Source: a virus
Lineage: Duplodnaviria > Heunggongvirae > Uroviricota > Caudoviricetes
Length of the DNA: 52,062 bases
Reading direction: 5' to 3' (one strand)
IMG/VR virus record: IMGVR_UViG_2531839330_000009
The notes beneath the pieces are model-generated. The model did no database searches, was not told where the DNA came from, and saw nothing but the letters and a program-made list of their open reading frames with translations. Both the position numbers and the translations under genes were made by a program. This document shows, in pieces, positions 29,943-30,590 of this stretch. How positions within the stretch are numbered: position 1 is the stretch's first letter; each line of letters opens with the position of its first letter.

Positions 29943-29970
29943 TTGTAAGTCATAAATAGAGTGATAGAAT
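29943..29970 (+). promoter_or_regulatory. putative sigma70 promoter of tail-module moron
   Basis: TTGTAA -35, 16-bp spacer, TAGAAT -10, ~35 bp upstream of moron ATG. Confidence 0.4.
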
Positions 29971-30005
29971 TAATGCACATTTAGAAAAATGTTAATAGGC
30001 GAAAA

Positions 30006-30536
30006 ATGAAAGGCTATATCACAGCAAGTGTAATTCTTGGAGCAGCGGCTATTTTTTCATCTCTCATAATCTCTGGCAACATCTCCTTTAAAGATGAACA
30101 TATTATTCAGTTATCTGGAGGAGCCATAAAACTTGGTGATGTTTATAAAGAAAATAAATTAATAAGTGCAAAGATTATTTTTCCAGATAATCAGGGTGAA
30201 CAGATTCTTGTTGTCGACGGCAATCCTGAAAACTTTAAGGAGGATTTTCAGGAGAAATTAAATAAAGTAATAAAAACTTTAAATGCGTCAAAGAAAAAAG
30301 ATGAAGAGAAAGTTAGCCTGGATAATTTAAGTGTTATTGAAGAGTCTAAACTAGAGCTCGTTTCTGCGGTGCGTTACTCTGCTCAGTATGTTCCTATGTT
30401 TACTCTGACGCTGGACAAAAAAGAAATTACCATGCCTAAAAATACGGTAATATTTCCATTTGCCAGCGATGAAACAGCTAAGTATTTAAATGAACAACAG
30501 CAAAAGTATAAAGATTCGTTGTTTCTGACTCGCTAA
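30006..30536 (+). CDS. moron: membrane-anchored/secreted protein of unknown function
   Basis: 176 aa, N-terminal hydrophobic anchor (ITASVILGAAAIFSSLIISG); very AT-rich; own promoter and terminator. Confidence 0.6.
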   Translation: MKGYITASVILGAAAIFSSLIISGNISFKDEHIIQLSGGAIKLGDVYKENKLISAKIIFPDNQGEQILVVDGNPENFKEDFQEKLNKVIKTLNASKKKDEEKVSLDNLSVIEESKLELVSAVRYSAQYVPMFTLTLDKKEITMPKNTVIFPFASDETAKYLNEQQQKYKDSLFLTR

Positions 30537-30554
30537 TTAATAAAATTCATTACA

Positions 30555-30590
30555 AGGCCACCTTCTAATAGGTGGCTTTTTAATTTTCGG
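30555..30590 (+). terminator. intrinsic terminator after moron
   Basis: GCCACC-TTCTAATA-GGTGGC hairpin followed by TTTTTAATTTT. Confidence 0.6.

Follow-up and report, generated by a model that had tools for sequence, protein, structure and literature searches.

The window analysed here is the whole 52,062-nucleotide stretch of the IMG/VR virus record IMGVR_UViG_2531839330_000009. It is Escherichia coli DNA and holds a prophage of about 39 kb, whose host is E. coli, integrated at the tRNA-Thr(CGU) gene thrW, beside proA. The present work concerns a short AT-rich unit that separates the tape-measure gene from the DNA-circulation gene in the tail module of this prophage, and the 176-residue protein encoded by this unit.

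The locus and its features

The early genes of the prophage are lambdoid and include a repressor and a Q antiterminator; the head is of the HK97 type and the tail is contractile, of the Mu type. The same architecture is found in SfV, SfI and SfII, the serotype-converting phages of Shigella, whose sequences are 95-96% identical to those of the prophage on either side of the unit, and thrW is the attachment site used by the SfV family too. To judge from its sequence, the prophage is a temperate myophage of the SfV family. The features that matter for what follows, all on the forward strand, are listed here with the evidence for each.

1369-1444, forward strand: tRNA-Thr(CGU) gene thrW, the attachment site (ARAGORN; annotation of a near-identical genome)
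28082-29914, forward strand: tape-measure gene, 610 amino acids, whose stop codon bounds the slot on the left (PF10145, E 1e-26; RefSeq annotation)
29915-30597, forward strand: cargo unit, 683 bp, AT-rich, in place of a 60-bp junction (empty versus filled sites; base composition)
29943-29970, forward strand: candidate sigma-70 promoter TTGTAA-16-TAGAAT, with an extended -10 TG at 29962-29963 (consensus scan, 9/12 plus TG)
29997-30001, forward strand: weak Shine-Dalgarno-like AGGCG, 4-6 nucleotides ahead of the start codon (read from the sequence)
30006-30536, forward strand: coding sequence of 176 amino acids, the only forward open reading frame (ORF) of the unit (ORF list; phrog_5485 match; intact in 75 of 76 copies)
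30009-30074, forward strand: predicted N-terminal transmembrane helix, codons 2-23, a signal anchor oriented N-in/C-out (AlphaFold helix 2-23; charge pattern of the family)
30096-30518, forward strand: predicted periplasmic alpha/beta domain, codons 31-171, about 150 amino acids (AlphaFold2; conservation)
30554-30587, forward strand: intrinsic-terminator hairpin (AAGGCCACCT / AGGTGGCTTT; hairpin at 30554-30579) followed by a T-run (scan; fold)
30588-30597, forward strand: ribosome-binding site (RBS) serving the DNA-circulation gene, CGGAGTATAT, which bounds the slot on the right (common to filled and empty junctions)
30598-31926, forward strand: DNA-circulation (Mu gp43-like) gene, 442 amino acids, the right flank (DNA_circ_N, PF07157, E 6e-34)

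The gene for a Mu gp44-like baseplate hub comes after the DNA-circulation gene. The guanine-plus-cytosine (GC) content of the unit is 0.34, as against 0.50-0.56 in the flanks, and it falls to 0.29 at the third codon positions of the coding sequence; a scan along the DNA gives 0.30-0.35 over positions 29900-30500 and 0.50-0.60 on both sides. The start codon is backed by an invariant Met1 in the alignment of homologues. No direct or inverted terminal repeats were found flanking the unit, and the idea that the cassette is a transposable element was rejected on this ground. The original prediction had placed an ORF, a promoter-like site and a hairpin with a T-run at these positions, between the tape-measure and DNA-circulation genes, in DNA of a GC content far below that of the flanking tail genes, and had given the product an N-terminal hydrophobic anchor. 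All of this is indeed there: the two neighbours are identified by their PF10145 and PF07157 matches, and the anchor is visible both as a segment of 26 uncharged residues, with a mean Kyte-Doolittle hydrophobicity of 2.1 over 19 residues, and as helix 2-23 of the AlphaFold model.

An optional gene in a polymorphic slot

The 683-bp unit is present, at an identity of at least 95%, in 179 of 5,426 complete E. coli genomes. A query that spans the junction (29400-31100) matches 1,093 of these genomes, only 171 of which carry the cargo together with both flanks; most of the other junction-bearing genomes have an empty junction of 60 bp, with no gene from the tape-measure stop to the DNA-circulation start (locus L007). 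About one in five complete E. coli genomes has the slot. In SfV, SfI and SfII it is empty too, and the backbone is 94-98% identical whether the cargo gene is present or absent. In other prophages, four unrelated genes alternatively fill the slot on the same backbone. The five types of cargo and the number of E. coli genomes that carry them are as follows.

176-residue protein with an N-terminal transmembrane anchor: the window; 179 genomes (the commonest occupant)
164-residue protein with a Sec-type signal peptide, also found in phage SKA5: locus L012; 85 genomes
148-residue protein with a transmembrane anchor and an OB fold (PF12869), on the opposite strand: locus L011; 72 genomes
225-residue lipoprotein with a lipobox: locus L008; 55 genomes
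125-residue protein with a bPH_1 domain (PF08000): locus L009; 28 genomes

The GC content of all the cargo regions lies between 0.31 and 0.42, and four of the five types are exported or membrane-anchored, that is, targeted to the envelope. The alternative cargos were considered as possible remote homologues of the 176-residue protein and rejected as such (hhalign probability below 3%). A link between the type of cargo and the tape-measure allele was likewise rejected, the 3' ends of the tape-measure gene being 94-97% identical whatever the cargo.

The cultured Edwardsiella phage EPP-1 carries a bPH_1 cargo in the equivalent slot (L020, 2123-2500), with a protein nearly identical to the E. coli version, and a prophage of Edwardsiella anguillarum has in its equivalent slot a 41%-identical copy of the 176-residue gene. 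These two occurrences were interpreted as meaning that the polymorphism is older than the genera concerned, and the near identity of the bPH_1 proteins as meaning that the same set of cargos circulates across genera. The composition of the 176-residue gene is foreign in each of four genera (Escherichia, Leclercia, Edwardsiella and Lelliottia), with a GC content of 0.34-0.38 in the cargo and of 0.47-0.56 in its flanks.

The gene is also found by itself. Directly downstream of icd, the locus used by e14-type phages, one Lelliottia amnigena genome has a 0.76-kb prophage remnant (L006, 9810-10568) that holds the last 45 or so tape-measure codons, an intact 174-residue ORF together with the region upstream of it, and the hairpin. 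Its homology to a Leclercia prophage extends over 763 bp at 74% identity and ends there, and no other phage genes lie within 10 kb. The remnant looks like a domesticated moron.

A moron, in the sense of Juhala/Hendrix (2000), is an extra gene of deviant composition that has its own promoter and terminator and is expressed from a repressed prophage (PMC3594210). The unit is both present or absent at the same position and deviant in composition. Its presence and absence, the unrelated alternatives, the foreign GC content, the low diversity described in the next section and the lone copy in a decayed prophage together give good support to the moron that had originally been proposed; the gene is very probably a non-structural moron that encodes an exported, membrane-anchored protein. 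By the same comparisons it is evidently dispensable for the phage, and apparently able to persist without it.

The tail module has another variable slot, for the relatives of the Leclercia type (L002, 12013-13808; L003, L024 and L107) carry a second insertion, which separates the DNA-circulation gene from the gp44-like hub gene and is absent from the window prophage. This insertion consists of two genes, of 503-523 and 94 amino acids, with no Pfam match.

Spread and selection

Among 76 IMG/VR copies, the mean identity of the unit is 99.4%, and that of the neighbouring tail genes 96.5-98.1%. The unit being less diverse than its flanks, it was taken to be a recently spread segment inside older, more diverged backbones. 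The cassette would pass from one prophage to another through homologous recombination within the conserved tail genes on either side, and the proposed spread would involve no transposition mechanism of its own. The ORF is full-length in all but one of these copies, and the ratio of non-synonymous to synonymous substitution rates (dN/dS) between genera is 0.04-0.17, at a dS near saturation; the gene is under purifying selection. The E. coli and Leclercia versions of the cargo protein are 53% identical, as compared with 86% for the tube, 82% for the hub, 75% for the sheath, 68% for the DNA-circulation protein and 39% for the tape measure, which has diverged far more than any other of these tail proteins (window 28082-29914 against L002 8147-9931).

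The candidate promoter and the terminator

The promoter-like hexamers TTGTAA (29943-29948) and TAGAAT (29965-29970), with a TG one base ahead of the -10 hexamer, lie 35 nucleotides before the ATG. Comparative evidence favours this candidate site and makes a promoter plausible here. Indeed, the segment 29936-30000, which comprises the candidate promoter and the 5' untranslated region, has not a single substitution among the 76 IMG/VR copies, and about 3 would be expected, given the 36 variable positions over the rest of the 683 bp. The same scoring rule finds extended -10 sites 32-62 nucleotides upstream of the lipoprotein, signal-peptide and OB-fold cargos, and no promoter-like element in the empty site; upstream of the bPH cargo, a TTGGCA-15-TATAAT was seen by eye.

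The hairpin and T-run fold at -17 kcal/mol (z-score of -5.5), and none of 200 shuffled sequences folds as well; an Rfam scan of the region gave only sub-threshold leader-peptide matches, caused by this terminator. The empty junction of L007 has a hairpin, a T-run and an RBS (CGGAGTTTAT-ATG) of its own, which fold at -18.7 kcal/mol, and the SfII record annotates the junction hairpin as a terminator. In addition, every forward-strand cargo ends in a positionally equivalent hairpin, of a different stem sequence, followed by the same RBS. Compared in this way, the terminator is a resident feature of the backbone at the junction, not of the insert.

The protein and its family

Residues 1-176 of the protein match positions 1-176 of the profile of PHROG 5485 (E 3.8e-108), and all of the 58 aligned relatives match PHROG 5485 too; PHROG 34391 is a truncated counterpart of the same family. 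Since PHROG 5485 carries no functional annotation, membership names the family without explaining it. A weak match to a PHROG 'endonuclease' (E 0.014) was treated as noise. With the 176-residue protein as query, Pfam gave no family at E <= 1 and NCBIfam no match, and the PDB sequence profile search gave no relative (best E 0.75); with all 58 relatives, Pfam gave scattered noise and no consistent family. Homology to a structural tail component, which the original prediction had named as what would speak against a moron, was thus not found in Pfam, NCBIfam or the PDB, or among the 58 relatives.

The protein has no cysteine and therefore no lipobox. An uncharged N-terminal stretch is found in 57 of the 58 family members, with a median length of 22 residues; in the family, the charge of the N-terminal flank is about +2 and that of the 15 residues that follow about -0.6. 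Small residues (Ser and Gly) are conserved within the helix, which argues for its retention. The protein is predicted to be a bitopic inner-membrane protein with a periplasmic domain; hydrophobicity, flank charge and the AlphaFold2 helix fit an N-in/C-out signal anchor, and with it the periplasm-facing protein that had been suggested.

The AlphaFold2 model has a predicted local distance difference test score (pLDDT) of 92 and a predicted template-modelling score (pTM) of 0.76 when made with the 58-sequence alignment; with 14 sequences, the pLDDT is 63. In this model, helix 2-23 is followed by a short linker and a sheet of four plus two strands that packs against two long helices, the predicted elements of the domain being b32-36, b39-44, b46-58, b65-72, a74-93, b114-126, b132-143 and a149-171. 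Two motifs are conserved, N-[IV]-I..G.V.LG.VY.E (residues 31-49) and Y.SE..P.F.L (residues 124-134), and the most conserved residues (G39, L43, G44, E49, Y124 and L134) lie in membrane-proximal strands. A Foldseek search against BFVD gave a sole significant match, A0A2H4P829, a 144-residue 'lipoprotein' of Pseudomonas phage ventosus (E 1e-6, probability 1.00, template-modelling scores 0.56/0.67, 16% identity). Like the 176-residue protein, A0A2H4P829 is encoded by a phage and, by its annotation, is exported and tethered to the membrane; unlike it, it is shorter and would be held by a lipid rather than a helix, and it is an uncharacterised protein whose structure is predicted, not solved. The homology and structure searches have thus produced a family and one fold match, and nothing that bears on the exclusion or surface-modification role first suggested for the protein. 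Such a role is plausible, in that it would fit the predicted periplasmic topology.

Relatives and their contexts

A profile search of 1.84 billion representative proteins gave 77 clusters, nearly all of 170-180 residues and matched end to end. The closer relatives are in Citrobacter, Enterobacter, Salmonella, Leclercia and Lelliottia, and a scan of GTDB species representatives gave a single locus, in Edwardsiella. Seven of the eight Enterobacterales contexts examined are the slot between the tape-measure and DNA-circulation genes, and this position is constant across the prophages of Escherichia, Leclercia, Edwardsiella and the Citrobacter type.

More distant relatives, 23% identical, are found in marine Pseudomonas-like genomes, where they lie not in tail modules but in small integrative islands that carry serine or tyrosine recombinases, a DUF5906 primase-like gene and an Mrr nuclease. 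A 180-residue neighbour in these islands was considered as a paralogue and rejected (probability 0.3%). A 30%-identical relative (locus L109) is AT-rich as well and lies in the baseplate region of an unrelated myophage, between an E217 gp41-like hub gene and a gpV-like spike gene. It is preceded there by a gene for a 113-residue protein with a Sec signal peptide (L109, 5576-5917), the pair forming an AT-rich two-gene insert in between hub and spike. Two distant relatives have no match in IMG/VR.

The record NZ_CP081716.1 (L108), 'plasmid unnamed3' of E. coli CX04, is a circle of 37,667 bp that consists of a complete cargo-bearing prophage of the SfV type, with a dusA fragment beside the integrase gene and many frameshifts. 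The record is thus more likely an excised phage genome assembled from long reads than a plasmid.

Comparison with known morons and exclusion proteins

The closest known parallel is the moron gp15 of HK97, a small YebO-like protein whose gene lies beside the tape-measure gene; gp15 becomes inserted in the inner membrane and keeps DNA from entering, in a manner that depends on the tail of the incoming phage (Cumby et al. 2012, reviewed in PMC3594210). Both genes are optional, deviant in composition and located in the tail operon next to the tape-measure gene, and both have the layout promoter-gene-terminator, the promoter here being a candidate and the terminator that of the junction. Both products are small, single-pass inner-membrane proteins (by prediction in our case) with homologues outside prophages. 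The two proteins nevertheless have no sequence relationship, a Pfam scan, with a library expected to include a YebO-type model, being negative. Moreover, the 176-residue gene lies downstream of the tape-measure gene and gp15 upstream; the phage of the former is contractile-tailed, of the SfV/Mu type, whereas HK97 is a siphophage; and the 176-residue protein has a folded domain of about 150 residues, predicted to be periplasmic, which sets it apart from gp15.

Several other cytoplasmic-membrane proteins, expressed from prophages or early in infection, act on genome entry: SieA of P22, Imm and Sp of T4, and Sie2009 of lactococcal phages. The proteins of the Sie2009 type are similar in size to the 176-residue protein and have an N-terminal anchor. 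No similarity of sequence or structure was detected between any of these proteins and ours, and the likeness is one of properties. A third group, made up of the lambda-type morons Bor/Iss and Lom and of the lipoprotein exclusion factors Cor and Llp, comprises AT-rich additions to lambdoid phages that encode exported envelope proteins expressed in the lysogen. These are outer-membrane proteins or lipoproteins, from which the 176-residue protein differs in having neither lipobox nor cysteine and in its predicted inner-membrane helix anchor. The 'moron' of the SfIV paper was considered as the same locus and rejected, as it sits between Q and the lysis genes.

Tail operons are a well-known location of morons, so that the layout alone is not surprising. 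What we have here is a familiar layout that carries a protein of an unannotated family, with no solved structural relative and a confidently predicted fold.

A possible role in superinfection exclusion

On the reading that we prefer, and to which we give about even chances, the unit is a moron, an optional accessory cassette that would confer a benefit at the envelope, for which superinfection exclusion is the leading candidate. In the lysogen, transcription would start at the extended -10 sigma-70 promoter of the cassette and stop at the junction terminator common to the phage family; in the lytic cycle, the cassette would be covered by read-through of the late transcript under Q antitermination, as Q-antiterminated late transcription in lambdoid phages is expected to do at such terminators. 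The product would benefit the lysogen at the cell envelope and, by analogy with HK97 gp15, would act on incoming phages by disturbing genome delivery at its periplasmic or inner-membrane stage. Exclusion at genome entry can be proposed as its role only tentatively, from this analogy. Three observations fit exclusion, without proving it: the four envelope-targeted types of cargo out of five, the presence of other protective cargo in the prophage (Bor/Iss and PD-T4-3, described at the end), and the recurrence of the family beside tape-measure, hub and spike genes.

A number of observations weigh against this reading. The terminator is already there at empty junctions and is therefore no proof of transcriptional autonomy, and the copies in Edwardsiella and at locus L109 have no terminator behind them and are packed in the operon, that of Edwardsiella 13 bp from the next gene. 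Promoter-like sites number 3 in 1.5 kb, counting both strands, and 2.9 +/- 1.9 in shuffled sequences, so that the match alone has no statistical weight; between genera the upstream regions align poorly, with a recurring TTGnnA element. Calling the unit self-contained was thus an overstatement: the hairpin is a genuine terminator, but one that is not specific to the insert, and TTGTAA-16-TAGAAT with its extended -10 is present as a match to the consensus, in no excess over chance. As regards the protein, some distant members of the family have FSA-type cleavage motifs, and in some members the hydrophobic N-terminus may be a signal peptide that is cleaved off. Nothing in PADLOC, Pfam, NCBIfam or the PDB links the protein to exclusion; in particular, neither it nor any of the alternative cargos has a match at E <= 0.1 in PADLOC-DB v2. 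In a sample of 60 rows, too small to be decisive, genomes with the cargo are not visibly less often doubly lysogenic for this type of tail. Finally, no member of the family was found among 50,697 records of cultured phages, searched by blastn and tblastn with the window protein and two distant relatives. A literature search for the RefSeq protein accession gave no match.

One may go further and regard the slot as a dedicated exchange site for unrelated, envelope-targeted exclusion proteins, and PHROG 5485 as a new periplasmic fold that blocks the genome delivery of contractile-tailed phages at the inner membrane, where it might engage the tape-measure protein or the spike as these cross the periplasm. 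This is a speculative extension that we hold to be unlikely. If true, it would define the first superinfection-exclusion class aimed at tails of the Mu/SfV type, and it would account for the repeated occurrence of the family next to tape-measure, hub and spike genes of unrelated myophages.

Whatever the function of the gene, a slot that comes empty or with at least five different fillings, the backbone being nearly identical, makes a concrete system that lends itself to testing. Should exclusion be confirmed, it would add a mechanism directed against contractile-tailed temperate phages, including the serotype-converting phages of Shigella, and would matter for the prediction of phage host range in Enterobacteriaceae, and the empty and filled prophages would provide natural isogenic comparisons. 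Should it not be, the gene would encode one more uncharacterised prophage envelope protein.

Alternative explanations

The product could be an envelope factor that serves the fitness or virulence of the lysogen without conferring phage resistance, through serum or stress resistance, adhesion, or tolerance of periplasmic toxins or bacteriocins. The morons Bor and Lom of lambda are examples of such factors. The architecture and predicted periplasmic location of our protein suit this reading as well as they suit exclusion, and the prophage already has a lipoprotein moron of the Bor/Iss kind; the intact lone copy left in the Lelliottia chromosome after decay of the phage would fit any benefit to the host, and no known defence protein was matched. 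We nevertheless regard this as a rather doubtful alternative, for the protein has no homology to known virulence or stress proteins either, and the gene occurs in environmental genera (Leclercia, Lelliottia and marine gammaproteobacteria) in addition to clinical E. coli, which argues against a role specific to host animals. Furthermore, the envelope proteins that make up most of the cargo types point the other way, since prophage envelope morons have often turned out to have exclusion functions.

It is improbable that the protein belongs to another kind of anti-phage defence, as a membrane sensor or effector that is triggered by infection (abortive infection, membrane depolarisation) and does not block entry. 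By prediction, hardly any of the protein is in the cytoplasm, so that it would have no obvious means of sensing cytoplasmic infection cues; it has no PADLOC match, and its single transmembrane helix shows no pore-forming features. These points stand against what would speak for such a function, namely that a single membrane-anchored protein is carried as prophage cargo, that the prophage has other defence cargo (PD-T4-3 at 38026-38850 and a weak PDC-S54 match at 13063-13695), and that distant relatives lie beside Mrr-type nuclease genes in small integrative islands.

Just as improbable is an accessory of the lytic cycle, expressed from the late transcript, that would stop progeny from injecting into dying cells or debris, modulate lysis or aid a later infection. 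The gene lies inside the late tail operon, where it would receive Q-antiterminated read-through, its neighbours in three phage contexts belong to the injection apparatus (tape measure, hub and spike), and the tight packing without terminator in Edwardsiella and L109 would suit late expression. Such an accessory would nonetheless have to be reconciled with a gene that is dispensable, SfV, SfI, SfII and about half of the related prophages being devoid of any cargo, that has survived as the lone gene of a decayed prophage and also occurs in islands that are not phages, and whose promoter-like element is conserved within the E. coli copies.

Lastly, a structural or assembly component of the tail, associated with the tape measure or the baseplate, can practically be dismissed in spite of the constant position in four groups of prophages, because the unit is optional, functional phages whose backbone is 95% identical (SfV, SfI and SfII) being without it, unrelated genes can replace it, one of them on the opposite strand, the predicted export to the periplasm is incompatible with tail assembly in the cytoplasm, no similarity to tail protein families or structures was found in Pfam, NCBIfam or the PDB, and the gene survives without the surrounding tail genes, as in Lelliottia.

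Other genes of the prophage

A gene for a Bor/Iss serum-resistance lipoprotein (16833-17174, reverse strand; PF06291, E 1e-30), just after an Rz-type lysis gene, is a classic moron of the lambda type. At the right end of the prophage, past the pin invertase gene, lies a gene for a GIY-YIG LEM-3-like protein (38026-38850, reverse strand) that matches PD-T4-3 of PADLOC over its full length (E 3e-140). Three co-oriented genes (13060-15260, reverse strand), of 211, 142 and 379 amino acids, are situated between the Q antiterminator and the holin and run opposite to the late operon. None of the three has a Pfam match; the 211-residue protein (13063-13695) has a weak PADLOC match to the candidate system PDC-S54 (E 1e-5), and these genes may be further defence cargo. 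The tail-fibre segment 35883-37349, next to pin (37375-37965), is inverted relative to the prophage of NZ_CP196312, which is otherwise 99.8% identical; this inversion is consistent with an invertible host-range switch of the Pin/Gin type.

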